Source of the DNA: a virus
Lineage: Duplodnaviria > Caudoviricetes
Reading direction: 5' to 3' (one strand)
Virus record (IMG/VR): IMGVR_UViG_3300042317_000943
Span: 1 to 30,389 of that record
DNA length: 30,389 nucleotides
Part shown: piece after piece, positions 1 through 29,885 of the stretch
Position numbering within the stretch: the first letter of the stretch is position 1
Layout of the letters: the number at the start of each line of letters is the position of its first letter
The notes under the pieces: model-generated
Databases searched by the model: none
Told to the model about the DNA's origin: nothing
The model's input: only the letters and a program-made list of their open reading frames with translations
Translations under genes and position numbers: made by a program

Positions 1-303
1 GACCGCTCCAGCCGGGACCGCACCATCGCCGCCAACGCCCGCGAGCATCTGGCCGAGTGCCTGCATGCCGGGGTGCTGGTGATCGATGACTTGGGCAAGA
101 ACGAATGGACCAGCGCCTTTGAGAGCCAGTTTTTCCAGATCCTCGACCACCGCAAAAACCACCGGCTGCCGCTGCTGTTTTCCAGCAACGCGCACCCGGA
201 GGGCTTAGGGCTGGTGCTGAGCGATCTCAACCGCGAGCCCATCATCGGCCGCCTGATGGACCGCACCACGCTGCTGGAAATCAAGAAGGGAGGCGCGCAA
301 TGA
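1..303 (+). CDS. DnaC/IstB-like AAA+ ATPase (helicase loader), 5'-truncated
   Basis: Frame is open from base 1. Walker B LVIDDLG, then FQILDHRKNHRLPLLFSSN and the IIGRL arginine-finger region typical of DnaC/IstB C-termini. Confidence 0.85.
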   Translation, partial: DRSSRDRTIAANAREHLAECLHAGVLVIDDLGKNEWTSAFESQFFQILDHRKNHRLPLLFSSNAHPEGLGLVLSDLNREPIIGRLMDRTTLLEIKKGGAQ

Positions 304-551
304 GTGAGACGCCGAGAACGGACAATGCAGAATTTCCCGTTATGACATGGCCCGAAAGGGATAACCCAATGGTAGTTCGCTCCGAGCTATCAAGACAACT
401 AGAGCGCGAGCTGGCAGAGGCATGGCACCTGCTAAATGTGCTCTGCCTAAATATAATGGACGATGGTCCGACATGGCCGCGAGTCCTCGAATTTCTTCGT
501 CGAAACGAGCGATTTCGTCCCGAGAACTCCAATGTGCAACCGCCGATATGA
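300..551 (+). CDS. Small hypothetical phage protein (MSETPRTD...RQLERELAEA)
   Basis: ATGA overlap with the upstream stop and a GGAGG SD upstream. Short coiled-coil. Its stop lies inside attC-like site 1. Confidence 0.7.
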   Translation: MSETPRTDNAEFPVMTWPERDNPMVVRSELSRQLERELAEAWHLLNVLCLNIMDDGPTWPRVLEFLRRNERFRPENSNVQPPI

Positions 552-621
552 GCGCGAAAGACTCCAATTCCAAAACCAAACTCCGCCGCTCATATCGGTT
601 GGATGACACGCATTGTTCGGG
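521..621 (-). other. attC-like recombination site 1 (integron cassette-type hairpin)
   Basis: Top strand: AAC(525-527)-N6-GTG-CA...CCGATATGAGCG(543-554)/CGCTCATATCGG(587-598)...TG-[A]-CAC-N5-GTT(615-617). On the minus strand this is the canonical AAC-N5-L''(extra base)...L'-N6-GTT layout. Confidence 0.65.
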
Positions 622-766
622 TTCTTCCGATCTAACGGAAAAACGCCGCAAGCAAAAAATTCAGAAAAATTCACCCTTACAGGACAAGGGTTTGCTGTCC
701 GTGATCTTCGCAAATGAGGCGAAAAGGAAGCAAAAGCCAATCTATCAGAAAACCGAAATGCTATAA
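548..766 (+). CDS. Possible short basic ORF initiating inside attC-like site 1
   Basis: ATG at 548 overlaps the TGA of the previous gene (ATGA). 72 aa with no motif, and it runs through the promoter region, so it may be non-coding. Confidence 0.2.
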   Translation: MSAKDSNSKTKLRRSYRLDDTHCSGSSDLTEKRRKQKIQKNSPLQDKGLLSVIFANEAKRKQKPIYQKTEML

Positions 767-767
767 T
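759..767 (+). promoter_or_regulatory. Extended -10 sigma70-type promoter (TGcTATAAT)
   Basis: Perfect TGnTATAAT in an A-rich context, 9 nt before ATG 777, which has no SD. Consistent with a leaderless or near-leaderless transcript. Confidence 0.6.
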
Positions 768-776
768 AACGCCGCT

Positions 777-944
777 ATGAAGAAAAAGCACTACATCTCA
801 ATGACACTATCAAAACCATTCGGCGGCTTCCTGAAAGATGGGAAGCCGATAACAGACGCAGAAGCCCGCGAAATCTGGGACTCAGGAACTGGAGATTGGA
901 GCCAAGGCGCATTCCAAGAAATGGCAAGGAGGGTGATGCAATGA
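777..944 (+). CDS. Small hypothetical protein (55 aa, MKKKHYISM...)
   Basis: In-frame ATG of track ORF 714..944 directly after the -10 element. Stop overlaps the next ATG (ATGA). Confidence 0.6.
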   Translation: MKKKHYISMTLSKPFGGFLKDGKPITDAEAREIWDSGTGDWSQGAFQEMARRVMQ

Positions 945-1162
945 AAACCGTTGAAATCAATATCAGTATCCCCATATCCGATAGCGTGAGTCACTCGCCG
1001 TCACTGATCCTGCGACTGATCGCGGAAACGCTGGAAGATCGCTTCTCGGAACTCGACGACATGGGGAACGAGGAAGAAGAGACAGTAGCCGATACGCACG
1101 GATTCGGAGGGAACACGCTCACGCTCACGACTGGCGATCACGTCGAGGAAATCTGCCTCTGA
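941..1162 (+). CDS. Small highly acidic hypothetical protein (73 aa)
   Basis: AAGGAGG SD upstream and ATGA coupling. 16 D/E versus 3 K/R. Ends just before attC-like site 2. Confidence 0.7.
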   Translation: MKTVEINISIPISDSVSHSPSLILRLIAETLEDRFSELDDMGNEEEETVADTHGFGGNTLTLTTGDHVEEICL

Positions 1163-1168
1163 ATATCC

Positions 1169-1224
1169 CCCGAACAGCCAAGCACAGCCGCGACAATAGC
1201 GTTGGCTGATGCGACCTGTTCGAT
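1169..1224 (-). other. attC-like recombination site 2
   Basis: CGAAC(1171-1175)-N6-GCA-CAGCC-loop-GGCTG-[A]-TGC-N5-GTTCG(1218-1222). Same spacers and same extrahelical base position as site 1 despite different arm sequence. Confidence 0.7.
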
Positions 1225-1239
1225 TTTTTACCTACCCAC

Positions 1240-1602
1240 ATGACCCAGCTTGAATTCCAGCAAATTGTGGATGGGCTGCCGGTGTGCCCGGCGGCCCGGC
1301 CGCGGCGTGCGGCGCGCAAGCTGCTGGTGTTTGTGCGGGAATTCGTGGAGCGAAAATTCCGCCATGGGCTGACGGACGTGGATTTGCTCATCCTCACGGC
1401 GCTGGCGCATTGTGCGGTGCCGCCGCGGTTTGTGCAGGTGATGGATCTGGCGCGCGGGGTCAGCCAGAGCGGCGTCTGGAACAGCCTGGAGCGGCTCGAG
1501 GGGCACGGGCTCATTGCGGTGGGCGGGCCGCCACTGGCCCATACCTACCGGCTCAGTGACGAGGGGATCAAGGTGCTGGCGCATCTGGCCGGAAAACGAT
1601 AG
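1240..1602 (+). CDS. Winged-helix (MarR-like) DNA-binding protein
   Basis: LTDVDLLILTAL...VSQSGVWNSLERLEGHGLI...YRLSDEG matches the wHTH pattern. Confidence 0.7.
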   Translation: MTQLEFQQIVDGLPVCPAARPRRAARKLLVFVREFVERKFRHGLTDVDLLILTALAHCAVPPRFVQVMDLARGVSQSGVWNSLERLEGHGLIAVGGPPLAHTYRLSDEGIKVLAHLAGKR

Positions 1603-1611
1603 GATCCAATT

Positions 1612-2136
1612 ATGAAAAAGGCGAAAAAGGTAACTGCCAAGAAGGCGGCCAAGAAAGTGGTGAAAAAGCGTGCGCCGGTGGTGGACGAGCACGGACTGAA
1701 CGTGCGCGAGCGGAAATTTGCCGATTTGTATCTGACCGGCATGGCGGCGGGGCGCGCGTATGAGGCGGCAGGGTTCACGGCCCGGGGTGCGAGCGCCGAT
1801 ACGCAGGCGAGCCTCGCCTTGAGAAACCCAAAGGTTTCGCGCTACATACAGGACGAGCGGCGCCGGGCGGCGGAGGCCAGCCGGATGGAACGCTGGGAGC
1901 TGGTGGGCTACCTGTGCCGGGTGCTGCGCACGCCGGTGGGGCGGGTGGACGAGGACAGCGATCTGGCCCAGGAGGTGGCGCGCGAGGAGGTGGCCGAGGA
2001 GGTGGTGCGCAGCCGGATCAAGATGGTGCCCAAGCTCGAGGCCGCCAAGCAACTGGCGCAGATCCTCGGCTACAACGAGCCCGAGAAAATGACGGTGAAA
2101 TACGAAGTGGTGATCGGTGGAAACGCTCAGGATTAG
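1612..2136 (+). CDS. terS: Terminase small subunit
   Basis: LNVRERKFADLYL..G...AYEAAGF...ASLALRNPKV motif and C-terminal KLEAAKQLAQILG. Immediately upstream of TerL. Confidence 0.85.
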   Translation: MKKAKKVTAKKAAKKVVKKRAPVVDEHGLNVRERKFADLYLTGMAAGRAYEAAGFTARGASADTQASLALRNPKVSRYIQDERRRAAEASRMERWELVGYLCRVLRTPVGRVDEDSDLAQEVAREEVAEEVVRSRIKMVPKLEAAKQLAQILGYNEPEKMTVKYEVVIGGNAQD

Positions 2137-3427
2137 AATCGAACCGCGGGCGCATTTCCGCGAGTTTTTGGGAAGCCGCCACCGGTGGAGTGTGCTGGTG
2201 GCGCACCGCCGTGCCGGCAAGACGGTGGCCGTGGTGCAAAAGCTCATTGCCTGTGCGCTGACCCACCAGCGGCCGGGGCCGCCGCTGCGCTACGCCTACA
2301 TCGCGCCCACCCGCGACCAGGCCAAGGACATTGCGTGGGGCTACCTGCAGGACTACACGGCCAAGATTCCCGGGGCGGTCGCCAACCAGGCGGAGCTGAA
2401 AGTCACCTACCCGAACGGGGCGACCATCCGGCTTTACTCGGGCGAGAATTACGAGCGGATGCGGGGCGTGTATTTTGACGGGGTGGTGAGCGATGAGGAT
2501 GCGGACATTCCGCCGGCGGCTTTTGATTTCGTGATCCTGCCGTGCCTGCTCGATTACGACGGCTGGCACACGCGGATCGGCACGCCCAAGGGGCGCAATG
2601 TTTTTTGGCGCGCTTACCGGGATGCGGTGGATGACCCGGACAGCTACGCGCTGATGCTCAAGGCCAGCGAAAGCGGGATCCTGAGCGAGGCAGCACTGGG
2701 CGCGATGCGCAAGAAGCTCACGCCGGAAGCCTACGCGCAGGAAATGGAGTGCGACTTCAGCGTGGGCAGGCCGGGCGCCATCTATGCCAAGTTCCTCGAG
2801 GCGGCGCTCAGCGAGGGCCGGATCATGGATTTCCCGTGGGACCGTGGTGAGCCGGTGTGGACCAGCTGGGACCTGGGCGCGCCGCAAAACACCCGCACGG
2901 TGTATTGGCAATTTATCGGCCGGGAGATCCATGTGATCGACCACGACACCGATCTGGACCTGACGCCAGCGGCGCGGGTGGCCCATATGGTGGCCAAGGG
3001 CTACCCGTATGCCGGGCATTTTTTCCCCCACGACGCTGCGGCAAGCGAAAAGACCGGCAAGAATTTCCAGGACACCATGAAGGAGGCCGGGCTGGAAGGG
3101 ATCCGCATCTTGCCCCGCTGCCGGGAAGTGTGGCCGGGCATCAACAAGTGCGGCGAGATGTTCCCGCGGATGGTGTTTCACAAGGAGAAAACCAAGCACC
3201 TGCGCGATAGCCTGGAAGCCTACCACCGCAAGGAGGACAAGCAGAGCGGGTTCATCCGCAGCGAGCCGGTGCATGATTGGGCCTCCCACGATGCGGATGC
3301 CTTCCGCATGATGGGCGAGGCAATGCTCAATGGCATGCTCAAGGGCATGGGCGAAGTAATTCGGGAATACCGGCCGCAACACCGCCGGCAAACCACGGCC
3401 AAGGCCGGGAACTACAAGCGGATATGA
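2117..3427 (+). CDS. terL: Terminase large subunit
   Basis: Walker A HRRAGKT, YIAPT, RG...DGVVSDE Walker B, IGTPKG coupling motif, nuclease WDLG and HDWASHDADAFR. Confidence 0.95.
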   Translation: METLRIRIEPRAHFREFLGSRHRWSVLVAHRRAGKTVAVVQKLIACALTHQRPGPPLRYAYIAPTRDQAKDIAWGYLQDYTAKIPGAVANQAELKVTYPNGATIRLYSGENYERMRGVYFDGVVSDEDADIPPAAFDFVILPCLLDYDGWHTRIGTPKGRNVFWRAYRDAVDDPDSYALMLKASESGILSEAALGAMRKKLTPEAYAQEMECDFSVGRPGAIYAKFLEAALSEGRIMDFPWDRGEPVWTSWDLGAPQNTRTVYWQFIGREIHVIDHDTDLDLTPAARVAHMVAKGYPYAGHFFPHDAAASEKTGKNFQDTMKEAGLEGIRILPRCREVWPGINKCGEMFPRMVFHKEKTKHLRDSLEAYHRKEDKQSGFIRSEPVHDWASHDADAFRMMGEAMLNGMLKGMGEVIREYRPQHRRQTTAKAGNYKRI

Positions 3428-9617: not shown

Positions 9618-12600
9618 ATGAGCGAGCAAATCGACCGCCGCATTTCGTTTAACGCCGGGGAAATTTCCCCATGGCTGGATCCGCGCATCGACTTGGAAAA
9701 ATACCAGATGGGCTGCCGCCAGATGGAAAACGTGCGTGGCAGCATGTATGGCGGGGCCGTCAAGCGGGCCGGCACCCAATACCTGGGCGCTGCCCTCACA
9801 GCCGACACCGCGGTGCGCCTGATCCCGTGGCTGGGCGGGGACGGTGCCGATTATGTGTTGGAATTTTCCGACATGAAACTGCGTGTGTGGAATGCCGCCA
9901 CCCAGGCCCTGGTGACATCCACTCCACTGCCGGAGGTGACGCAGATTTACACGGTGGCGGATGTGGCCAACAGCCTCGACCAGAAAACCTTCATTTTGCG
10001 CGGCGCGGCGGATGCCACCGTGGGATTCTGGCTGGATACTAATGGCGCGGGCACCGCACCGGCGGAGGCCCTGGCCTGTGCCACCCAGGTGAAGATCACC
10101 CTGGCGACCGCGGACACGGACGCGAGCGTAGCCACCAAGGTGGCGGCCGTGATCGAGGCCCACGCGGATTTCACCGCCACGGCCAGTGCAAATGAAATCA
10201 TTGTGACGGCCGTGGCCACCGGGCTGCGCACCAATGCCTCGGCCAGCACCTCGGGCTTCACGGTGAATCCCATCCAAAAGGGCGTGACCACCGGGGAGAC
10301 GGTGGAACTCACCACGGTTTACACCGCCGCCCAACTGGAGCAGGTGCAGCACGTGCAGCAAAATGATGTGATGTATCTCACGCATCCGGATCACAAGCCG
10401 CAGGTATTGCTGCGTGCCACCGACTGGCAGATCGGCGATGCGAATTTCGAGTGGCCGGCCACGCTGGGCCCCAACATCAGCAGCACCACCATCACGCCGG
10501 TGATCGCCGCGGGCGTGCCGATCCCCACGCCGGCGGCTTACAATCCGAGCGTGCGCTACACCACCGGGCAGACGGTCAGCTACAAGGGCAGCATTTACGC
10601 CCGCACCTCGGCCTACAGTGGCAAAGTCAAAAACGTCGATCCGCTGGGCAATGCCAGCGTGCTGTTCAACCGGCAGGCATGGCGCTTCTGGAAATTCACC
10701 GGAACGATTCCCTCCCCTTCGGCCAGTGGTTTCATTTACGTGGGCCAATCCATCGGCCTGTTGGCCAGTGGGCCGTTGTTCCAGGCTGGCCATGTGGGCA
10801 CCTCCTGGGTGATTGCGCACAATCGGAACACCCCGAAAACCTCGCTTTACATCACCACAGCCTTCCAAGGGGCATTCAGTGAGCCGGTTTATGTGCTCGG
10901 TGCATTTGTCATTTCAGTGACCAGCCTTGTTGCCGGGGTGACTCCAAAAGGCAGTGCCATCGTAGTCATCCAACAAAGCGACGACATGGTGACTTGGGAA
11001 ACCTACACGGGGTTGGGGATTTATTACCAAAACTCCAACCAGATCGTCACTGGGAATTTTGACGAGCCGGTTTTCTTACGCATCTATGTGGAAGGCAACG
11101 ATGGGCTTATCAACTTTTCCTTAGTGGTGGAAATCACCCCCGACTCCGCAACGCAATACGGCATGGTAGTGATCACCGCGGTGACGGATTCCAAGAATGC
11201 CACTGCCACGGTGACGCGGCCCCTGTATCGTCCGCTGGCCACCCAAGTGTGGGAGGAACCGGCGTTTTCCGCAGTGCGTGGCTATCCGCGCGCCGTCACA
11301 TTGCACGACGGCCGGCTGTGGTTTGGCGGAACAATCCACCGGCCCACCAGTGTGTGGGGCAGTGCGGTGGATGCATATTGGGATTTCCGCCTGAGCCCGG
11401 AAGAGGACCGCGCGCTGCAATACACGCTGGCCACCGATGAGAGCAGCAAAGTGGAGTGGCTCGTTAGCCAAGACTTGCTGGTGATCGGCACCAGCTCGGG
11501 CGAGTGGGTGCTTGGCCAGCGCCCGGGCGACGATGCCATCCGGCTGCGGCGCAATACCTCGTATGGTTCGGCGCCGATACAGGCGCGCGCGATATCCGAT
11601 AGCGTGGTCTTTATTCAAAAAAGCCGCCGCAAGCTGCGCGAGTTCGCCTGGTCTTTTGAGCGGGACGGCTACCTGGCCAATGACCTGACGATGCTTGCCG
11701 AGCACCTCGGGGATGCGGAGATGCGCCAAATGGCCATCCAGCGCAACCCGGAGGCCATCGTGTGGGTGGCCACCACCAGGGGCGATTTGCTTGGCATGAC
11801 CTACGAGCGCGGACAAAACGTGGCTGGCTGGGCCCGTTTTACAACCTCGGGCAGCATCGAGAGCGTGTGCGCACTGCCGGCTACGGCCGAGGAAGATCAT
11901 GTGTGGCTGGTGGTGGCACGGGAAATTGACGGCGCCCAGGTGCGCTACATCGAGCGGCTGGCCCCGGACCAACTGCGCGCCTTGAAACTTGGCGAGCTTG
12001 TCGAGCTGGTTTATGCCGACTGCTCGCGGACCATTGCTCCTGCTGCCAATCCGAGCGGATCGGTGATGGTGTCGGGCTTGGATCTGGCGGTGCCCGCCCT
12101 GGCTTACAACGGCCAGCAGAACAACCGGCCGTATTACAGGGCAGATGGGCTGGTTTATCAGCTCTCGGCAATCCGGCCCTTGGGCAGCGTGACGCTGGAT
12201 CCGGCTGGAGCCAACAATGCGGTGGATGTGGAAACCTCCGACACAAGCATCACCGAGGCTGAAATTGCCATCAATAACACCACCGCCCGCACGGCCCTGA
12301 CGATTGGCCAAACCGGCGGCTTGGTCAAAATCACCAGCGGGGACAAGCGGGTGATGCGCATCTCGGCCAATTTCGGCAGCGGCGTGGAAAACCATGATTT
12401 GACTTATTACGGGCTCTCTGGTGTGAACCCGGTATGGATCAAAAATGTGACCGGCGGCGAAGTGTCCCTGACCCATTTCATTGAGGAGGGCGAATTTGCT
12501 TTGAGCAAAGACATTGGCGAGGGCAGCGATTTTTTTGAATTGGTGTCTGCCGCGGCATTCCCGGACTTGGCGGATTGGTCCCAAGCCACCGCAGCGGAAG

Positions 12601-16075: not shown

Positions 16076-19000
16076 ATGGCCACCACGCTTACACCCACCA
16101 TCACCGCGCCCAACCCGCTGGCTGCGCCCACTGCCCCACAAATCCCGCAATCCGCCGCGCCGCCCGCCGGCATGCTGCAGCCCTTCGAGGATCCGCGCGA
16201 GGCCGACCGCCGCCAGCACAACGAGGCAATGGCCAAGTGGTTCAGTGAAAACCGCCGCGTGGTCGATGAAGGGTTTTTGGATCCGGCCAAGGCATTTGCC
16301 GACATACCGCAAGGCTTTGCCGATAGCATCGACCAGGTGCGCATGCTGGCCGCCAATGACGATCTGCTGCGCCTCTACAACCAAGGCGAGGATCCGCCGG
16401 CCGATGAGCTGGGCCGCTACCTGCTGCGGCTGCGGGTGGCCGAGGAGGAATTCAAGGGGCAGGGCGCGGAGAGCGAAGAGGCATTTTTTCAAAAGGGCAA
16501 AGAAAAGGCACTTAGGCGAGTGGATACAGCTACGGTGATAGCGGGGGTGGTGCAACAAGCGCGCCAATCTGCAATCCTTGATCTGCTCAATCCAGGAGAA
16601 TTCCGAAATGGATGGGTTGCGGCACGCAACTCGGCAATGAGTTTGCCGGGATACGATCCGGCGGAGGACGGGGAATTGTTCCATGCATATTCCGAAACCA
16701 TGCGGGATGAGCGGGAAAAGATGAAACCCTATGTGCCGCAACTGCTGGAAATGATCCAATCGTTCAAGGATCAGGAAGGATCCGGGCCAATTACCGCCAC
16801 GTTAAAAGAAGGCACCGCGATGGGGGTGTTGGGCGCAATGTTTGGCGAAAAACCACAAACCAGCAGGACCGCGTGGGAAATCTGGCAATCGATGGCGCCC
16901 GAGCAACGGCCTGAATTCGAGCAAGCCATCGGCATTCTGGCTCGTGCACTTCCCGAAGATCAGCAGCAAACGTTTTGGGGCAACGTGATGACCAGTGGCG
17001 GGCGCTACTTGGAAAAAGGACTCAGGGACGCATTCAACACGGCGCGCCAAATCAGCGCGCCAGCGGAATTTGACCGGCTGGCCAGTGAAATCGGACGGCC
17101 CGGTGTGGGATTTCCAGAAGAAGCTGATTCCGCGCGCGAGTTGCGCGACAGGCTGAATTTCCAATCCCGCATGGTCATGTTGCGCGAGCAGGTGGTTGAT
17201 CCTGTCAAAGAGGTTTCGGAAGGGCCGGTGAGTCGGTTTTTTGAGCGCATGGCCTACGGGACCCCAGGCGCGATCATGTCGTCTGCTGCGGCCATGTATG
17301 CCGCACCACTGCTGGCGGCATCGCTCACCGAATCCCATTACCAATCCATGCTGCAACGCAGGATGGATGCCGGTGACAGCTATGAGAAAGCCGATAAATT
17401 CGCGGCGCAAGCCGCGCCGGCAGGAATGGCACTCGAATTCATATCGGAAAAACTTGGGGCCAAGCTGCTGGGCGGAGAGCTGCCGTATTTCAACAAGGCG
17501 CTGACCCGGATCATGGACCGCATCGAAAACCCGATTGGGCGGATGGGTGCACGCTTTGCGGCTGGCGGCACACAGGAAGGGCTCACTGAAGTATCCGCCA
17601 ATTACATCGACGCGGTGGTGCAAGACTTGGGGTATGCCTTGGGCGCCGATGTGGGACCAACCAAGTGGCTGGGAGAAAACGGTGAATTCCAAGGCGATTG
17701 GGCGGAGAATCTGGATACGTTCGCACTCGGTTTCCCGCTGGCGTTCTTTGGTATCCGCGGGTCATTTGGGCGGGATGCGCGCGTCAAGGCTTTTGCAGAG
17801 GCCAGCGATTTGGAAATGAAGGCCGTAGGGTATCAACCTGGTGACATTTCCAACATTCGCGCAGGTATTGCCAGGGGATTGAATTCCGGGGAGACCGCAA
17901 TCAATGCTGCATACGAAAACGTCAACCCCAACAGCCCCGAGGCCAAGGCCGCGGCGGAGGAGCTGGCCGCCAGGGAGCGCGCCCGCCGTGAGGCTGCCGG
18001 GGCCCTGCGCGCATCCGGCGATCTGCCCATCATCGTGGCGGGACGCGAAGGATACACTGTGCTGGACGGCCGCACTGAGGAAACCGTGGGCACTGCCCCG
18101 AGCATGGGCGCCGCGTGGACCATGGCCCAAGCGCATTCTGATTTCCTTGCCGATCTGGATGCCGATGCCGTGGCCTACATGAAATCCTTGCTCGAAAGCG
18201 CGGATTTCGTGCAGAAGCTCGATCCGAATCAGGAAACGCGCCTTGAACTGGGCACCGTGATGGACCGCGCGCTTCTTGAGGCCGAGCGCCCGGAAATGGC
18301 CGCCCGCTTCGCCAAGCAAGTCGAACTGAAAGAACAGGCGGCCGGCGGCACCGGGGAAATTTCCTACACCGTCAACGGCTGGAGCGAGTCCCAGATACGC
18401 GACAACCTGCGGCAGACCGTGAACCGAATTTTCCAAGGCGGCAGCGTGCTGACCGTCTTTCACGAATTCACCCACGGCCGGCGCCGGGCCCTGCGGGAAG
18501 CCGGCCAACTGAGCCGCGAGGAGGAGGTTTCATTCGTCCGCGCGATTGACGCTGTGCTGGCCGGCAAGCGCACCCGCGAGGGCGAGCGCCTTTCCTTCCT
18601 GCCCGAGGGCATCACCGACGAGCAGATCACCGAAGAAATGATCGACGAGGCGATTTCCGAGGTAATGGAAATGGAAATCCTGCGCAGCCGCTCTGGCGGC
18701 ACCAAGCGCCGGATGCCGCAGCGTCCCGGTGCCGGCAATGTCCCCAGCGGCTTTGTCACCCGCAACCTCACCGCACTGGCCCGCCTGGCACCGGAGGCCA
18801 CCCGCAAGTTTTCCGCCTTCATCGAAAGCGTGCGCGCCCACTTTGGCCAAGCGCTGGCCCGCGCCCTCGCAATCAAAAAAGCCGAGCGCGAGGGGAAATT
18901 CGATGCTGACAGCTACGACGCCTTCCTCGCCAAGCTGCTGGGGCTCGACGTGCAAGACGATTTCAACCGGCAAACCGCCCAGGAGGCCGCCCGCATTGCC

Positions 19001-22000
19001 GATCCGCTCTCGCCCGAGGCATTTGCCGCGGCCTTGAATTCCGATTACGACGTGGACGCGGATGATATTCCGTTTTCCATTGCGCGCAGCGGCATGCGCT
19101 ACCCGGAATTCCGCTTGTCACAATTCGGCCCCGTGCCAAGTTTGACCAGCAACACCGGGGTGCTGTATCCAGACGGCCATGAAATCGACCTCAGCCAAAA
19201 CCAAGCGCCCGCTCAAATACCCGATGGTGGAGGAGAATTTTGGAATCAACTTTCCAAAGACGGAAGACACGCCGCCGTATTGGGTGCATGGGAAGCCTAC
19301 GAAGGCCGGGGACTGGCCGAAGACTGGATCCGCCCCGCCCTCATCGAGCCCGGCGCCAACCCCACCGACCCCAGCGTAACGGGCTTTTGGAACTGGCTGC
19401 GCGACACGCTCAACAGCGACTTTTTCCGCGGCATCGATCCGGTCGATACCATGGACCTGCTGGTGGATATTTTCCAGCTGGAATGGTATGCCAGCGAGCG
19501 CGACAGCGGCTTTGACCAGCACCATTACATGCAAATCGCGCCGGACGGCACCGTGCTGGCCCTGCGCAACGACACCGGCCAGGCACGCTTTGCGCGCCTG
19601 CCAGACCCGAGCGCCCAGCCCGAGCTGGCGTTTTCGCTGGGACGCAGCACACCGCAAACCTTTGCCAACCGACTCCTTGACAAGATTGGCGAGCAAGCAT
19701 TACGTGCTGAGCAACCAAAGGCGAAATATGAAGACAAGCGCCAACTCCTGCTCGACTTTGCGGAAAGCATCCTCAATCCGGCTGCCGAAAAGTCTGCTCA
19801 AACAGGGAACGTATCCAGACGAACCTTCGGCCCCTTACAGGTTATCCGCGAAAGGTTCGCGCAAAAGCTCCAACTCGATCCACAAATCCGATTCATTGGC
19901 GAAACGCTGACGGATCTCACGGATTTTGTGGAGCGTGCGCAGGCATTGCGCAACCCGTTATTCGAGACGTTTTATGTGATTGCCATCAAGCGCGGAGAAA
20001 CCAGCGACAAGGTGCTGGACGTGCGCGCCTACACTTCACGCTGTCCCTGCGCGGCGGCCGTCACCGATCATGCCAAGGGCGTATTGGCAGGAATCACGGA
20101 ACAAGCTGGCTTTTTGAAAAGCGTGGGCGCAGATGAATTGTATCTGCTGCACAATCACCCGAGCGGTGATTCCACACCTTCGTCTGCCGATTTGGCGCTG
20201 ACACGGAAATACCACGCAATGATGCAAGCTGAGGGCATCAAGCTCCGTGGGCACGTGGTCATCAATCATCGGGAATTCCACAACATCACAGTGGAGGATA
20301 CCGGCGGCGGGGTCTTGGATGCCGTGGCAATGCCTGGCGAATTGGCAGATACAGGCCGGATTGATCCATACGCATGGCCCTTGTTTGATAGTTCAATCGG
20401 CAAGCAGATTGACGATCCTTCGTTGGTGGCGGCACTCGGCCGGGAAGTTGGCGCGGCTTACACCGACCCGGAAACCTTAATCGGCTTCATCACAGACAAT
20501 CGCCACAAGGTGGTGGCAGTGCTGGCTGGATCAATCGATGATTTCATGGGGCTGACCAATGCCGGATTGCAAAACTATGCCAGAGAACAAGGCGGAGTGA
20601 GTCTGATGCTACATGGCAAAGAAGACAGCCAAAGCAATGCGAGACGCCTGCTGCGTCGCTTTGCAACCGCCAATCAAACCAATCGCGTTTTTGAAATGGT
20701 GGTGGAATATCCTGGTGGTTATGTGTCGGGATTGAGCGATGAAGGATACAAAATGCAAAGGATGGTCGATAATGATCGATTCTTTGGCGGAGAGGGAAAC
20801 CCGGCCATGCGGGTGCAGGAAAATTCTATTTCCCTTGGGCGTGCCACCGTCACCCCCACGGCCAGCACCCGCGCGTTCCAAGGGGCTGCGGGCTCGCCCA
20901 GCGCGATCGGCCCGGCGGCTTTCTCCATCGGGGCCTGGCACGGCACGCCGCACAAGATCACCAGCCGCATGAGCCTTGACAAAATCGGCACCGGCGAGGG
21001 CGCGCAAGCCTATGGCTGGGGGCTGTATTTTGCCAACGCTCTCGATGTGGCCAAGAACTACATGGAAAACACGGAATCACGGGCCAAGGTGCAATACAGT
21101 CCGGTGCTTCGTTATGAAGGGCAACGGGTGGATGCACTTGACTGGCCAGCCGTTAAAAAGCGGGCGGCATCGGCCATTGATAGCATGGGGAAAGCACGTG
21201 CCATCGTTACGGCCACGGATCGGAATGCCAATGAATTGCTGGCAGCTATCGAATCTATTGACGAAACAAAACTTTCCTCCGGACTTGAACGATTTGGGGC
21301 GCCAACCGGCAACCTCTACCGCGTGGAACTCGACGTGGAGCAAGACGATCTGCTGGATTGGGACAAGCCGCTGAGCGAGCAGAGTGAGAAGGTGCGCAAG
21401 ATTTTCGACGCATTGGACAATACGCCGCCAGAAGGTTTCCGATTGTCTGAATGGTTGGGACTGACAATGAAAGGCTGGTATGAAGGACCAGGGCGGCACA
21501 ATCCGGCGGTAACGATGTATGCGGAATTGACCAAGCATTTCGGCCGTGCCGATGGGCAAGGTTTTGGCGGTGAAGCATCACGCAAGGCAAGCGAACTACT
21601 CGCCGCCGCCGGCATCCGCGGCATCCGCTACCTCGATGGCAACAGCAGGCGAACTTTCAAGGTTAAGCAATCAGCAAACAAATCACAATGGACGGTGATG
21701 GAAGAAATCACCGACCGCCGCTCTCCAGATTATGGTGACACGGTTCTGGCACAAGGTGGATTTGCCTCTCGGGAAGAAGCTCAACAATGGGCAGACAGGC
21801 AAGTCTCTTACAACTACGTCATCTTCGACGAATCCGCCATCAAGATCACCGAAGAGAACGGGGTGCCGGTGGACCTGTCCGAGGCAGGCGGCAGCTTTTC
21901 GCTGGGCCGCCCGTGGCCGGCGAATTTCCCCAACGTGGTGATTTCCACCACTGTGGGAAAAATGAAATCCCACCCCAACTACACGGCCGCCAAGGCGGGC

Positions 22001-25000
22001 AGCGTGCGGGATGCCTTCCGGGTGGTCAATGATCTGATCAAGGTGGACCGGCTGCGCGAGCTGGGCCGACAGCACCCGGGGGCCATTGTGGCTGGATTGC
22101 ACGCCGAGGAGGCCACCGGCATGAATAGGCTGCCGGAAGCCTTGGCCGAGGCCATCGCCCACCATGGCAACTTGGAGCTCGATGATGAGCTGGTGATTAT
22201 CAACACCCCGAAGCGCACTGGATCCACCGCCATCCACCGGCTGGCCTCGCGCCCGGAGTTTGCCGGGCAAATCCAAGCTGGCCGCCAATACATCCTGGCC
22301 GATGACGTGGCCACCCAAGGCGGCACCTTGTCCGAGGCCCGGGCCTACATCGAGGAAAACGGCGGCGAGGTGGTGGCGGTAGTGACCATGGGCGCTGCCC
22401 AGGGCGGCACTTTGCTGGCCATGTCTGAAAAAACACGGCTTGCACTGGAGCAGAAATTCGGCAACGATGCACTCAATGAATTCGCCAGCGACACCGGGCT
22501 CTACGGCGGCCAATGGCAAGCCTTCACCAACAGTGAAGGACAAGCCATCCTCCGATATTCCAAGCTCGAAACTGCGGCGGATGCAATTCTTGCAGCAAGA
22601 CAAGCAGCAGGCCCAGCGGGAGCTGCGCAGCCTGCGGGCCAACCAGAACTGATCCAAGGCCGCTTCCAGGGCTTTTCGCTTGGCAGGCCCGGGGCGGCCG
22701 GGCAACTTGGCGGCATCGATCCCAACCAGCCCGGCGGGGCCAATATCGGTGACGCGGCCCTGCCGTCCAATGTCGTCACTCCTGAAATGGATGCGGCGTA
22801 TCTCGATGCGGTGGAACGTGGGGATTTGAAGCAAGCATCCGCCATGGTTAAATCTGTTGCCACTGAGTTAGGTTTTGTTGTTGGCCCTGTGTTTCATGGA
22901 AGCCCCAACTTTGAAGGAGGCGCTTTGGGCATCCCTTCAAAATACAAAGGAATGGGTAACTATGTTCATAAATATTGGTTTACTGACAATTTTGACCTTG
23001 CCCTCTACTACGCCGATCAAAACGACATTGACGACGTGACAACCGATTTGAACACATCCGCAGGAAAACCCGCAGTTGTCGAATTTTATCTGAAGTCTCC
23101 AACCAAAACACTTGATCGGCGCGATTACGAAGAGGAAGGCATGGAAGAACAAAGCCCCGTCCAAGATGCAAACTTGCAAATTGGAAGAAAGCAAGGATGG
23201 GAAATTGTCAAAATTGAAAACATTAACGACAAGATTGACTCAGAGACGGTTGGCAATTCTACAATCTACGGTCTTGCAGACACATCTTTTGTCGTTCCGG
23301 CACAGCCTATTCTCCGAGATTCTGCCGGCAACATCATCCCGCTTTCCCAACGTTTTAACCAGTCCTCCCCGGCGGATTCCGGGGCGGCATCTTTGGCCCC
23401 CTCCCGCGGGCTCGACCTGATGCGCATGAATGCGCTGGACCGGGTGCGCAACCCGCGGCGCCGGGCGGAGATATTCCAGCGCATTTCCCGCGAGTTTGAG
23501 CGGCTCAAGCTGGATGCCGAGCGCTTCGAGCTGGTGGCCGGCAGCAAGCGCATGCGCAAGAGCCTGCTCAAGGAGGCGGCCATGCGCGAGGCGGTGCGGC
23601 GCGAGGAGCTGGAAAACGACGTGTATGCGCGGCACTGGGAGCTATTGAGCAACGAGGATTTGGTGCGCATCAAGAGCCAGCCGGTGCACGCCGCGCTGGC
23701 CGATCCTGACAGCCCGCTGCGCGGCCGCCTGATGAGCCGCAGCGCGGCCATGAAGCACCGCGCGGAGTTGTTTGGCGAGGACTACAAGGGCGGCGAGTGG
23801 GACGGCAGCGACGGGCTTTCCCGCTCGATCTTTGGCGGCACTCTCACGCCCGACCAGGCGGCCCAAGAGCTCTACGACGAGGGGCTCATCAACAGCCCCG
23901 ATGTGGACACCCTCTGGCAGGCGCTTCACAGCGAGCAGGCGCAAGTGGCCGGCATGAAAGAGCAACTGGCCCAAGTGCAGCAGCAGCTGCGCGCCGCGCG
24001 CACCACCGCCAAGCAGGAGGCCAACGACTGGCTGCGCCAGGCTGGCGAGGGGCAGGCGGCCAACTACTCGCCCAAGCAGGAAATCCTGCGCGCCCTGGCA
24101 TCGATGCAGGCGATCCTGCGCGCGCTGCCGCCGCCGGTGCGGGCCAAAATCGGCGGGATCATGGACATCGCCCGGGCTGGCAGTGAAGAGGCGCGGCTGG
24201 CAATTCTCAAAGACACCATCGCCAAAAGCGACCGCGAGCTGGAAAAATGGATGCGCGAGACGCTCGACCGCGAATTCCGCGAACTGCTCGAGCGCACGCG
24301 CCCCGAGCGCGATGAGGCGGGCAAGCGGCCCAAGGGCAAGATCGGCGCCAACGTGCATGACTTGTTTCGGTCCATCGAGGATGCCATGTTCCTGGACGCC
24401 GCGGAAACCGAGGCCGAGGCCACCCGCCTGGAAAGCCTGGCCGAGGCCGAGGCCACCACCGCAGAGCAGGCCGCCCACCTGACCTTGGAGGCCAATCTGG
24501 TGCGCTTGGTGGGCGACTGGCGCAAGGCGGATGCCGCCCGGCGGGAAATGGCCTTGGCGGAGGCGACCAGCGCCTATGCCGGTGGCTACCTGCAGGCCCA
24601 AATCAAAGCCGCCCAAAAGCGCGAGCGCATCACCCGCCGCCGCGCGGATCTCAAACACGACACCGGCCGGGCCGGGGAGCGCATGGAGCGGGTGAATGCG
24701 GAGATCAAGGCCCGCGGCACCAAGCTGGGCCGCACCCGCGAGGCACTGCTCTCTATCTTCAGCTTCGATCAGATGCTCGGGCTGGTGTTTGGCGAAGGCA
24801 GCGCCACCGCCCGCTCGTTTGCCGAGTGGGAACTGCGCGCCGCCAATGCCAAGGAGAATGCCATCCAGCGCACGCACAATGCCGTGGAGGCGCTGCTCAA
24901 CGATCTGGCCGGCAATCCGCTGGCCGGCGAAAAACTCCGCTACAAGCTGGCCACCGAGCGCCGGGTGGAGTGGATTGACTGGCAAGGCCGCAAGCAGACT

Positions 25001-26674
25001 GCCACCGAAATGGAGGCGGTATCCTACACGCTGTGGTGGGCCCAGGCCGATGGGCGGCGCCACATGGAAGGGCAGATTGAGGAAAACGCCGACGGCTCCA
25101 CCACCGTGACCTCGGACTGGCACTGGCGCGAAGAGGACGTGGCGGCCATCGAGCGCCAGCTTTCCAAGGAGGCCAAGGCCATCCGCCTGCATCTGCGCGA
25201 GAACTACGGCGCCGAGTATGACCGCATCAACGCGGTGTTTTCCGACCTCTACGGAGTGAACATGCCGCGCCACAAGGACTACAGCCCCATCGCGGTGGCA
25301 CCGCAGCACGCCCCCGGCGGCCAGATGGCAGATCCGGTATCCGGCACCATGCAGGGCCCGGGGCTTACGCCCGGCAGCCTCAAGAACCGCAGCCATTCCG
25401 CCGTGGCCGAGCCGCAGCGCATGGACGCGCTGCAGCATTACGTGGCCCACGTGAAGCAGATGGAGCACTTTATCGCCTACGGCCAGCTGTCCAGCGAGCT
25501 GATGGCCATTGTCAACAACCGCGAGCTGGGGAACAGCATCGAGGCCAAGGCCGGCAAGGAAGCGCTCAACATCCTGCGCGCATGGACCGACTACTTCGCC
25601 CAGGGTGGCACCCGCGATGCCGCGGCGCACCTGGCCGTTTCCGGCTGGTTCCAGCGCGGGCTGGACCGGATTTCCCAAATGGCGCTCGTCGGCCGCGTGA
25701 GCGTGCTGGCCATCCAGAGCGTGCAGCTCGGCGCCGCCACCTACCAGATGCCGGTGGGCAGCTACCTTACGCGCCTGGCAAAACTCACCACCGGCCAGCT
25801 CGGCTGGGGCAAGGCGATCCGCTCCGACTACATCCAGCGCCGCCTGGCTCAGATGCCGCCCGCCGTGCAGCAGGCCATGCAGGGACTGGCCAGCGGCCCG
25901 CCCAGCCGCCTCAAGCACGAAACCGCCCGCCTCGGCAGCCTGATATCCGGCGCCGACGCGCTCTTCACCGCCGGCACCTACGCCATCATCTACGATTACC
26001 AGCTCAAGCTGGCCAAGGACCGCGGCATGCCCAGTCCCGAGCAGTGGGCCCAAGAGGAAACCATTCGCCTCACCGACCAGGTGGCCCAGCCCATGCGCGC
26101 CGGGGCCCGCTCGCTCATCGAGGTCACAGCCACCAATCCGGCATTCCGCATGATGTGGGCCTTCGCGTCCGAACCGCGCCAGAAAATCGCCCTCAGTGCC
26201 TACGGCCTGATGCAGAAGACCGGCCTCGAGCGCTTCCGCGCCGCGGCCATTACCTGGACGGTTTCCGGCCTGCTCGCCGCGGTGGTGCGCGCCGCCGTGC
26301 GCGATCTGCGCGACGATGGCGAGGACGATGAGGTGTTCGATGAAACAAACTGGGATCCCACGCGGCTGGCGCTCATGGCGCTCTCCGGCCCCATCGGTGG
26401 CTTGCCCATCGTCGGCAAGGAAATCGAAAACATGATTTATGCCGGCGCGGGCGAATACATGCCTGGCAGCACCCTCATTTCCGGCCCGTCCAAGGCCGCG
26501 GGCACCATCCGCAAGCTCGCCACCGGCAAGGGATCTTGGGAAGACGCCATCAAGGACGCGGAAAGCATTTTGATGGGCGTGGGCGTGGCCAGCCCCACCG
26601 CAGCCGCCGCCGCGTCGTGGAGCCACATTGCGCGCGATCTTGAGGCCATTTACAAAAACACCACCGAAGACTGA
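16076..26674 (+). CDS. Giant ejection protein (gp16-like position) / large polyvalent protein: zincin peptidase, JAB/RadC, ART-like x2, PRTase
   Basis: 3532 aa. HEFTH (18461-18475), HNHPSGDSTPSSAD (20150-20191), WHGT...IGTGEGAQAYGWGLYFA (from 20936), DDVATQGGT (22301-22327), FHGS...WFTDN (from 22892). Helical termini with hydrophobic segments. Confidence 0.88.
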   Translation: MATTLTPTITAPNPLAAPTAPQIPQSAAPPAGMLQPFEDPREADRRQHNEAMAKWFSENRRVVDEGFLDPAKAFADIPQGFADSIDQVRMLAANDDLLRLYNQGEDPPADELGRYLLRLRVAEEEFKGQGAESEEAFFQKGKEKALRRVDTATVIAGVVQQARQSAILDLLNPGEFRNGWVAARNSAMSLPGYDPAEDGELFHAYSETMRDEREKMKPYVPQLLEMIQSFKDQEGSGPITATLKEGTAMGVLGAMFGEKPQTSRTAWEIWQSMAPEQRPEFEQAIGILARALPEDQQQTFWGNVMTSGGRYLEKGLRDAFNTARQISAPAEFDRLASEIGRPGVGFPEEADSARELRDRLNFQSRMVMLREQVVDPVKEVSEGPVSRFFERMAYGTPGAIMSSAAAMYAAPLLAASLTESHYQSMLQRRMDAGDSYEKADKFAAQAAPAGMALEFISEKLGAKLLGGELPYFNKALTRIMDRIENPIGRMGARFAAGGTQEGLTEVSANYIDAVVQDLGYALGADVGPTKWLGENGEFQGDWAENLDTFALGFPLAFFGIRGSFGRDARVKAFAEASDLEMKAVGYQPGDISNIRAGIARGLNSGETAINAAYENVNPNSPEAKAAAEELAARERARREAAGALRASGDLPIIVAGREGYTVLDGRTEETVGTAPSMGAAWTMAQAHSDFLADLDADAVAYMKSLLESADFVQKLDPNQETRLELGTVMDRALLEAERPEMAARFAKQVELKEQAAGGTGEISYTVNGWSESQIRDNLRQTVNRIFQGGSVLTVFHEFTHGRRRALREAGQLSREEEVSFVRAIDAVLAGKRTREGERLSFLPEGITDEQITEEMIDEAISEVMEMEILRSRSGGTKRRMPQRPGAGNVPSGFVTRNLTALARLAPEATRKFSAFIESVRAHFGQALARALAIKKAEREGKFDADSYDAFLAKLLGLDVQDDFNRQTAQEAARIADPLSPEAFAAALNSDYDVDADDIPFSIARSGMRYPEFRLSQFGPVPSLTSNTGVLYPDGHEIDLSQNQAPAQIPDGGGEFWNQLSKDGRHAAVLGAWEAYEGRGLAEDWIRPALIEPGANPTDPSVTGFWNWLRDTLNSDFFRGIDPVDTMDLLVDIFQLEWYASERDSGFDQHHYMQIAPDGTVLALRNDTGQARFARLPDPSAQPELAFSLGRSTPQTFANRLLDKIGEQALRAEQPKAKYEDKRQLLLDFAESILNPAAEKSAQTGNVSRRTFGPLQVIRERFAQKLQLDPQIRFIGETLTDLTDFVERAQALRNPLFETFYVIAIKRGETSDKVLDVRAYTSRCPCAAAVTDHAKGVLAGITEQAGFLKSVGADELYLLHNHPSGDSTPSSADLALTRKYHAMMQAEGIKLRGHVVINHREFHNITVEDTGGGVLDAVAMPGELADTGRIDPYAWPLFDSSIGKQIDDPSLVAALGREVGAAYTDPETLIGFITDNRHKVVAVLAGSIDDFMGLTNAGLQNYAREQGGVSLMLHGKEDSQSNARRLLRRFATANQTNRVFEMVVEYPGGYVSGLSDEGYKMQRMVDNDRFFGGEGNPAMRVQENSISLGRATVTPTASTRAFQGAAGSPSAIGPAAFSIGAWHGTPHKITSRMSLDKIGTGEGAQAYGWGLYFANALDVAKNYMENTESRAKVQYSPVLRYEGQRVDALDWPAVKKRAASAIDSMGKARAIVTATDRNANELLAAIESIDETKLSSGLERFGAPTGNLYRVELDVEQDDLLDWDKPLSEQSEKVRKIFDALDNTPPEGFRLSEWLGLTMKGWYEGPGRHNPAVTMYAELTKHFGRADGQGFGGEASRKASELLAAAGIRGIRYLDGNSRRTFKVKQSANKSQWTVMEEITDRRSPDYGDTVLAQGGFASREEAQQWADRQVSYNYVIFDESAIKITEENGVPVDLSEAGGSFSLGRPWPANFPNVVISTTVGKMKSHPNYTAAKAGSVRDAFRVVNDLIKVDRLRELGRQHPGAIVAGLHAEEATGMNRLPEALAEAIAHHGNLELDDELVIINTPKRTGSTAIHRLASRPEFAGQIQAGRQYILADDVATQGGTLSEARAYIEENGGEVVAVVTMGAAQGGTLLAMSEKTRLALEQKFGNDALNEFASDTGLYGGQWQAFTNSEGQAILRYSKLETAADAILAARQAAGPAGAAQPAGQPELIQGRFQGFSLGRPGAAGQLGGIDPNQPGGANIGDAALPSNVVTPEMDAAYLDAVERGDLKQASAMVKSVATELGFVVGPVFHGSPNFEGGALGIPSKYKGMGNYVHKYWFTDNFDLALYYADQNDIDDVTTDLNTSAGKPAVVEFYLKSPTKTLDRRDYEEEGMEEQSPVQDANLQIGRKQGWEIVKIENINDKIDSETVGNSTIYGLADTSFVVPAQPILRDSAGNIIPLSQRFNQSSPADSGAASLAPSRGLDLMRMNALDRVRNPRRRAEIFQRISREFERLKLDAERFELVAGSKRMRKSLLKEAAMREAVRREELENDVYARHWELLSNEDLVRIKSQPVHAALADPDSPLRGRLMSRSAAMKHRAELFGEDYKGGEWDGSDGLSRSIFGGTLTPDQAAQELYDEGLINSPDVDTLWQALHSEQAQVAGMKEQLAQVQQQLRAARTTAKQEANDWLRQAGEGQAANYSPKQEILRALASMQAILRALPPPVRAKIGGIMDIARAGSEEARLAILKDTIAKSDRELEKWMRETLDREFRELLERTRPERDEAGKRPKGKIGANVHDLFRSIEDAMFLDAAETEAEATRLESLAEAEATTAEQAAHLTLEANLVRLVGDWRKADAARREMALAEATSAYAGGYLQAQIKAAQKRERITRRRADLKHDTGRAGERMERVNAEIKARGTKLGRTREALLSIFSFDQMLGLVFGEGSATARSFAEWELRAANAKENAIQRTHNAVEALLNDLAGNPLAGEKLRYKLATERRVEWIDWQGRKQTATEMEAVSYTLWWAQADGRRHMEGQIEENADGSTTVTSDWHWREEDVAAIERQLSKEAKAIRLHLRENYGAEYDRINAVFSDLYGVNMPRHKDYSPIAVAPQHAPGGQMADPVSGTMQGPGLTPGSLKNRSHSAVAEPQRMDALQHYVAHVKQMEHFIAYGQLSSELMAIVNNRELGNSIEAKAGKEALNILRAWTDYFAQGGTRDAAAHLAVSGWFQRGLDRISQMALVGRVSVLAIQSVQLGAATYQMPVGSYLTRLAKLTTGQLGWGKAIRSDYIQRRLAQMPPAVQQAMQGLASGPPSRLKHETARLGSLISGADALFTAGTYAIIYDYQLKLAKDRGMPSPEQWAQEETIRLTDQVAQPMRAGARSLIEVTATNPAFRMMWAFASEPRQKIALSAYGLMQKTGLERFRAAAITWTVSGLLAAVVRAAVRDLRDDGEDDEVFDETNWDPTRLALMALSGPIGGLPIVGKEIENMIYAGAGEYMPGSTLISGPSKAAGTIRKLATGKGSWEDAIKDAESILMGVGVASPTAAAAASWSHIARDLEAIYKNTTED

Positions 26675-29868: not shown

Positions 29869-29885
29869 CATAGTGACCACCCGCC

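Follow-up and report, generated by a model that had tools for sequence, protein, structure and literature searches.

Two attC-type hairpins and the cassette between them

The window analyzed here is an entire virus record (IMGVR_UViG_3300042317_000943, G000) of 30,389 bases, a linear and approximately 80% complete contig of a Caudoviricetes phage. Between its DnaC-like helicase loader gene and its terminase genes, two hairpins that resemble the attC sites of integrons enclose a 648-bp cassette of small genes (Table 1). We think it likely that this locus is a two-site attC cluster enclosing a swappable cassette, with exchange likely catalyzed by IntI, the integron integrase of the host that the phage infects or lysogenizes.

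Read on the minus strand, both sites consist of AAC, a five-base spacer, an eight-base L box with one unpaired base, a variable stem, a seven-base L box, a six-base spacer, and GTT. On the plus strand, site 1 opens with AAC (525-527), the six-base spacer, a 7-base L arm, and a long stem, and its right half comprises an L arm with an extra A at 606, the five-base spacer, and GTT (615-617); in site 2, AAC lies at 1173-1175, the extra A at 1209, and GTT at 1218-1220. The L arms form Watson-Crick pairs at 6/7 positions in site 1 and 7/7 in site 2, the 5/6 asymmetry of the spacers is common to both, and the terminal structures differ in length. Both extrahelical A bases are on the plus strand, the bottom strand of attC. 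This geometry, including the coordinates and the extra A, is exactly that given in a preliminary description of the sequence, which also drew attention to the outer boxes. Within either site these agree at just two of four variable positions, and GTTCGGG, to the right of site 1, is the exact complement of CCCGAAC, to the left of site 2 (7/7). When minus-strand folds were compared with those of shuffled sequences, one of 200 shuffles folded as well as site 1 and none of 200 as well as site 2. A scan of the window for geometry only recovered both hairpins and no third place, a result that is weak by itself because 20 shuffled windows averaged 0.5 matches, with two matches in 2 of the 20. The motif ATCGAAC inside the start of the large terminase gene (terL) could pair with the outer box of site 2 and was attributed to chance, since its use would cut terL.

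Sixteen bacterial intI loci were scanned and yielded eight attC sites in five loci, six from Verrucomicrobiales and two from a metagenome-assembled genome (MAG) labelled Nitrospira. In the window, a covariance model of these eight host sites alone (R1), with a hand-written structure, ranked site 2 first and site 1 second (scores in Table 1), followed by a third match at 12.3 bits. The two leading matches are on the minus strand, and their ends are identical to those in the preliminary description, so that the covariance analysis bears out the attC identity proposed there. These results confirm that both hairpins are attC-type sites on the minus strand. Because a model built on host sites alone finds the phage sites, the latter can be said to resemble host attC. 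The two sites are 648 bp apart (<4 kb), with no integron integrase in the 30-kb contig. The first site of the array, in cassette polarity, has attC rather than attI architecture, and the array is not a complete integron, being flanked by terminase and DnaC-like genes with no intI beside it. [quoted passage not shown]

All three frames of the cassette are antisense to attC, in agreement with the opposite orientation reported earlier, and the first begins inside site 1, unlike the usual cassette layout. This 72-aa frame was missed in the preliminary description; it is likely translationally coupled to the upstream gene, and its product may be a leader only. We presume that the crossover falls within AAC at the position given in the integron literature; our own data place it within 524-527. 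For the cargo open reading frames (ORFs), no PHROG, NCBIfam, or Pfam family was found; Atlas neighbours of the 73-aa ORF fall below 0.8 and are leads only, and among viral contigs its gene occurs only in the near-identical contig L001. The AT-richness ascribed to the cassette holds here (GC content 0.497, compared to 0.618 for the contig) but not in general: an alternative methyltransferase cassette, described below, has a GC content of 0.619, and AT-richness was therefore dropped as a cassette marker. A terminator-like minus-strand hairpin is present in an A-rich stretch of the cassette at 673-691.

The gene upstream of the cassette (300-551) reads in frame through the crossover AAC, as Asn, and then ends within site 1. 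In the sister contig L027, its homologue ends in a different tail from another cassette. At the protein level, Asn occupies the crossover codon in 16 of 18 homologues sharing the domain of this ORF, and the 14 different tails that follow would suggest that many cassettes have been placed behind that codon.

Table 1. Coordinates of the cassette, its sites, and the flanking genes in the window
Feature	Position	Strand	Remarks
DnaC-like helicase loader gene, 3' part, backbone	1-303	+	phrog_50, E 2e-10; 98% identity in sisters
Small phage gene, 83 aa, upstream of cassette	300-551	+	Last 7 residues and stop from site 1
attC site 1, long, 101 nt, part of the 648-bp cassette	521-621	-	20.1 bits (R1); fold z -2.6
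Integrated cassette, 648 bp	527-1174	-	Crossovers AA^C at 526/527 and AA^C at 1174/1175
72-aa frame starting inside site 1	548-766	+	ATG overlaps upstream TGA; no Pfam match
54-aa cargo ORF	780-944	+	One homologue; no PHROG or Pfam family
73-aa acidic cargo ORF	941-1162	+	ATGA-coupled to ORF 780-944; 7 full-length homologues, 62-92% identity
attC site 2, short, 56 nt, backbone, resident in all alleles	1169-1224	-	24.8 bits (R1); fold z -4.3
120-aa gene, backbone, weak winged-helix match	1240-1602	+	MarR_2, E 0.014, below cut-off
Terminase small subunit	1612-2136	+	PHROGs
Terminase large subunit	2117-3427	+	PHROGs

Alternative alleles at one crossover

Among terminase relatives, three contigs match at 99% identity in the terminase and extend into upstream DNA. 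L001 carries the window's own allele. L027 tracks the window up to the AAC of site 1, continues with another attC-like hairpin and a Dam-type methyltransferase gene (Pfam Dam, E 1e-13; phage_N6A_met below cut-off), and returns to the window sequence at site 2's AAC; the insert measures 578 bp, with cross-site boxes that are complementary for 8 bases past the GTT/AAC triplets. L088 has the same methyltransferase allele. In L002, other small genes follow the DnaC-like gene and are joined straight onto site 2 at its AAC, and site 2 is retained in L001, L002, and L027. A further contig, L168, has a methyltransferase 73% identical to the one in L027, with the same short site at its end; the idea that it is the same cassette moved between phages was dropped because no long site was found directly before it.

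DNA of the phage was found in lake and freshwater metagenomes, with at least half of the sampled words present in 8 of 24 listed runs, and eight of the 24 were compared with the window at the level of assembled contigs only. A replacement from 527 to 1171 by 573 other letters is present as a single contig in three of the eight runs (X9, X12, and X10; 2016 and 2024), and an L002-like joint from 307 to 1179, with 620 other letters, occurs in two. In run X15 (1/8 runs), position 523 is joined to 1172, which leaves out exactly 648 bases, and four letters fit either side; this is suggestive of the predicted empty allele. A second joint in X15, from 785 to 1169 with a 23-letter side, was left without interpretation. 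The 648-bp cassette is a real unit that is replaced at AAC in sister phages, with presence/absence breakpoints at the AAC/GTT boxes in L027, L088, and runs X9, X10, and X12. The presence of different cassettes at the same crossover in sisters supports the earlier suggestion that the phage shuffles accessory genes at attC.

Not all variation at this locus involves a hairpin. The last 60 bases of the DnaC-like gene plus the next start (window 248-307) are duplicated in L027 (3801-3860 and 4194-4253), with a 393-bp module between the copies, and many contigs break at 248-307. This segment is a second, hairpin-free route for swapping small genes, probably via short homology.

Boxes, polarity, and reading frames in related phages

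Of 87 surveyed sources, most of them oriented by terL, 11 had R1 matches at E<0.05. These matches number 15, lie without exception on the minus strand, and represent 13 distinct sites, two of which are the window's own. Sites found by scanner, model, and short-family searches were then pooled from 107 sources, 35 of which had sites. In 18 of 24 neighbouring pairs, the box that follows a long site agrees at 4/4 positions with the one that precedes its neighbour; boxes of the same site agree to this extent in only 3 of 39, and the observed sum was reached in none of 20,000 permutations. The pooled strand count of 55:1 was not used as evidence because it is fixed in part by the way in which pattern-found loci were oriented.

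Reading frames were analyzed for 60 sites, of which 10 near locus ends were dropped, leaving 35 long and 15 short sites. Of the long sites, 28 are entered by a plus-strand ORF of at least 45 aa; AAC is in frame with this ORF at 23 of the 28, and the stop lies at or inside the site at 27. An ORF starts inside 29 of the 35, overlapping the stop of the entering gene in 15. Among the 15 short sites, an ORF enters 13, and all 13 of these ORFs are in frame at AAC and stop inside. The host integrons show the opposite arrangement: no stop/start coupling at any of the eight host sites, and cargo sense to attC that ends just before the site at five of them. In other respects, the sedentary chromosomal integrons of Verrucomicrobiales (L170, L172, L178, and L182) share with the phage their architecture, similar arm sequences, and chimeric attC/attC boxes. 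A separate pull with a host-type arm pattern returned 121 viral loci, of which 10 are attC arms and the other 111 were dropped as chance; in the six with long flanks, gene couplings are mostly on the strand antisense to attC.

These comparisons separate two classes of site: the long site 1 travels with the cassette and resembles host sites, and the short site 2 stays in all alleles. Short sites, aligned in 15 rows, are conserved from AAC onwards and preceded by unrelated DNA. In this alignment 94% of cells are paired, and 6 of 12 pairs have changed on both sides, several of them owing to one divergent row; AAC and GTT are invariant in 15/15, in rows that were partly found by patterns containing these bases. 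The short family recurs in unrelated phage-like contigs of 47-68% GC. For short sites on the left of a pair, the box matches the next site in 0/3 cases, and an A/T-rich stretch and a gene start come after the site. Site 2 heads the array in cassette polarity, the position that attI has in an integron, and on this basis we infer that it is a candidate insertion anchor. In 401 Verrucomicrobiales genomes, the site-2 arm was found with one mismatch in 11, about as often as a reversed control, and the short family was not found there; a gapped host-attC pattern gave nothing in 38 genomes. An 18-base arm pattern had 34 metagenome matches, nine of which belong to the hairpin family, the others being dropped as chance.

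Two further arrangements of short sites were observed. L165, from the 38-kb complete phage G410, has three short sites that alternate with long sites within 2.8 kb, which makes it a suitable model array for the anchor hypothesis. L027 has a second short-site copy (1524-1574) after a RusA-like gene (labelled by eye, with no Pfam match). This copy, possibly an inactivated anchor, lacks the extrahelical A, and runs X4 and X12 show the same loss as a deletion of one base.

Proposed mechanism, alternatives, and known systems

IntI recombines the folded bottom strand of attC and excises cassettes via attC x attC, and it works better when that strand is often single-stranded, according to the accessible text of PMC11023631. 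In the phage, the plus (coding) strand would be the recombinogenic bottom strand and would fold when single-stranded. Host IntI would excise the cassette as a circle through recombination of site 1 with site 2, incoming circles would insert at AAC in site 2, the short resident site, which would stand in for attI, and each newly inserted cassette would push older ones upstream. Because the cargo is antisense to attC, it has the same orientation as the adjacent phage genes, and phage transcription would express it. From each incoming hairpin the upstream gene would obtain its stop codon, often together with a start codon that overlaps it, so that exchange would leave the operon intact. Homologous exchange between sisters may then spread alleles already made. 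A likely benefit is fast change of accessory genes such as DNA methyltransferases.

The source of the recombinase is presumably the host. No PF00589 tyrosine recombinase was found in G000, consistent with the absence of an integrase from view in the preliminary description, although the contig is only about 80% complete. IntI was absent from the phages searched, including the sister contig G001 (0 matches), while 12 of 38 genomes from the family of one Verrucomicrobiales MAG have IntI over the NCBIfam cut-off; for these reasons, we infer that IntI borrowed in trans is the simplest source. The host may be one of the Verrucomicrobiales. G001, which reaches further upstream than the window, encodes a 373-aa tyrosine recombinase, and relatives of this integrase, at 36-44% identity, are present in 27 of 301 Verrucomicrobiales genomes, the only group searched.

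Several observations weigh against this interpretation. The empty joint in X15 is represented by a single contig, whose short side measures 26 letters, and extra letters between the sides are possible. No junction of a circular form was found in the eight runs, in assembled contigs only, which drop rare forms. In the methyltransferase cassette, the spacer beside AAC in the hairpin is five bases long instead of six. R1 rests on eight training sites, and its E-values are rough; with default filters it missed the sites of L002 and L027, and it had matches at E<0.05 in just 11 of the 87 sources. Six of the 24 neighbouring pairs match incompletely, probably because sites in between were not detected, and the anchor role is based on the 0/3 cross-matches plus position. 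The best terminase matches in genomes are to MAGs labelled Caulobacter (61%) and Chitinophagaceae (55%), with three Verrucomicrobia MAG contigs ranking behind (48-50%). Regarding orientation, inversion is not universal: 10 of the 35 long sites have an ORF of at least 60 aa ending on the attC strand, and in L125 and L126 the cargo is host-like and has the usual orientation, sense to attC. These are phage-like contigs in a Verrucomicrobiales MAG, in which host-type cassettes (L125, 604-728; L126, 1356-2926) upstream of the terminase genes point the opposite way to the phage genes. Since even here attC is on the minus strand when terL sets the orientation, what stays constant may be how attC is oriented within the phage and not the inversion of the cargo.

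An alternative that we consider unlikely, though the most credible of three, is that the attC sites are relics and that present alleles are swapped by homologous recombination between co-infecting phages, with no current IntI activity. The flanks are 97-99% identical, so homologous exchange would yield the same apparent breakpoints for existing alleles. The hairpin-free junction at 248-307 and the short-site copy in L027 that has lost its extrahelical base also fit this explanation. However, it does not account for the origin of each allele with AAC breakpoints and matched boxes or for the variety of tails behind one Asn codon, and the preservation of boxes and extrahelical bases points to use that is recent or still under way. 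Such a process can also operate alongside IntI-mediated exchange.

It is considerably less probable that a recombinase encoded by the phage, rather than host IntI, acts on the hairpins. The incompleteness of the window's contig and the tyrosine recombinase of G001 leave room for this, but the G001 protein scores 22.5 bits against an integron-integrase cut-off of 265 and looks like a lysogeny integrase. PF00589 had no match in five of five other attC-bearing phages, three of which are at least 90% complete (97-100%), with no search made for other recombinase families; furthermore, the sites resemble attC found beside bacterial intI. Least probable, and by our estimate remote, is that the hairpins are RNA elements (terminators, processing sites, or translational couplers) whose likeness to attC is incidental: they do include stop and start codons and are situated where genes meet, but the window has no Rfam match at E<=1, neither hairpin was called by terminator prediction, and RNA elements predict neither cross-site box complementarity nor DNA breakpoints at AAC. 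A secondary RNA role may exist alongside the attC role.

Several described systems are close to this locus and are compared here on the basis of the accessible portions of the sources. Qi 2023 reported 17 CALINs in 10,705 genomes, the main examples being typical arrays, proposed that they arrive by off-target or illegitimate recombination, and found that IntI1 recombined phage attC sites in vivo in five of six cases (PMC9892861). The present locus shares with these CALINs two or more attC sites on a phage genome, methyltransferase cargo, several ORFs between sites, and the lack of intI; systematic antisense cargo, in-frame read-through, and exchange of alleles at the crossover between near-identical phages are seen here and not in the accessible text of that paper. 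Unlike the intI-attI-attC system (10.1101/030866), the phage lacks intI, and a short attC heads the array at the attI position. In work on SALINs and on cassette insertion at secondary GWT (attG) sites, IntI acting in trans can insert cassettes into DNA far from an integron, and such insertion could seed the first site in a phage (10.1101/2022.09.11.507474). Insertion of that kind has no strand or transcription bias in the portion of the report available, whereas here all confident sites share a single polarity with respect to the terminase gene, and one position is used again. A literature search found no paper on antisense in-frame phage cassettes or crossover allele exchange, in a search that left subscription journals mostly uncovered.

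To this picture the locus adds alternative alleles at one position in one population, a short anchor family, and a counter-example in polarity. Within one lake phage population, a single position is occupied by two or more different cassettes, and is probably also found empty, with base-exact ends, which would turn phage-borne attC from a curiosity into a documented exchange system. It would represent a site-specific route to phage mosaicism and methyltransferase switching without a phage recombinase. The long cassette site and the conserved short anchor provide two short, defined substrates for tests of attC x attC insertion and of cassette origin. We speculate, tentatively and with more doubt than confidence, that Verrucomicrobia phages maintain their own mirror-image cassette pool that depends on the host integrase, in which a short attC serves as surrogate attI, the recombinogenic strand is fixed on the coding strand, and phage genes become cassettes once two sites flank them. 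If so, phage early regions would be a place where gene cassettes form, a long-standing question about integrons.

The remainder of the contig is phage-like, with the head, tail, and internal-protein module after the terminase all on the plus strand (PHROGs). No sigma-70-type promoter was called in 280-1650, and no relatives of the cassette region were found among 50,697 GenBank phages. A 3,532-aa ORF at 16076-26674 has short PHROG matches only, and its portion at 22766-23352 is unaligned in both sisters. Stretches at 9899-11127 and 27795-29875, in the tail gene and a 954-aa gene, also fail to align to sister contigs and are candidate variable regions for host recognition. The Lys/Ala-rich start of the small terminase has an in-frame 12-base insertion polymorphism at window position 1635.
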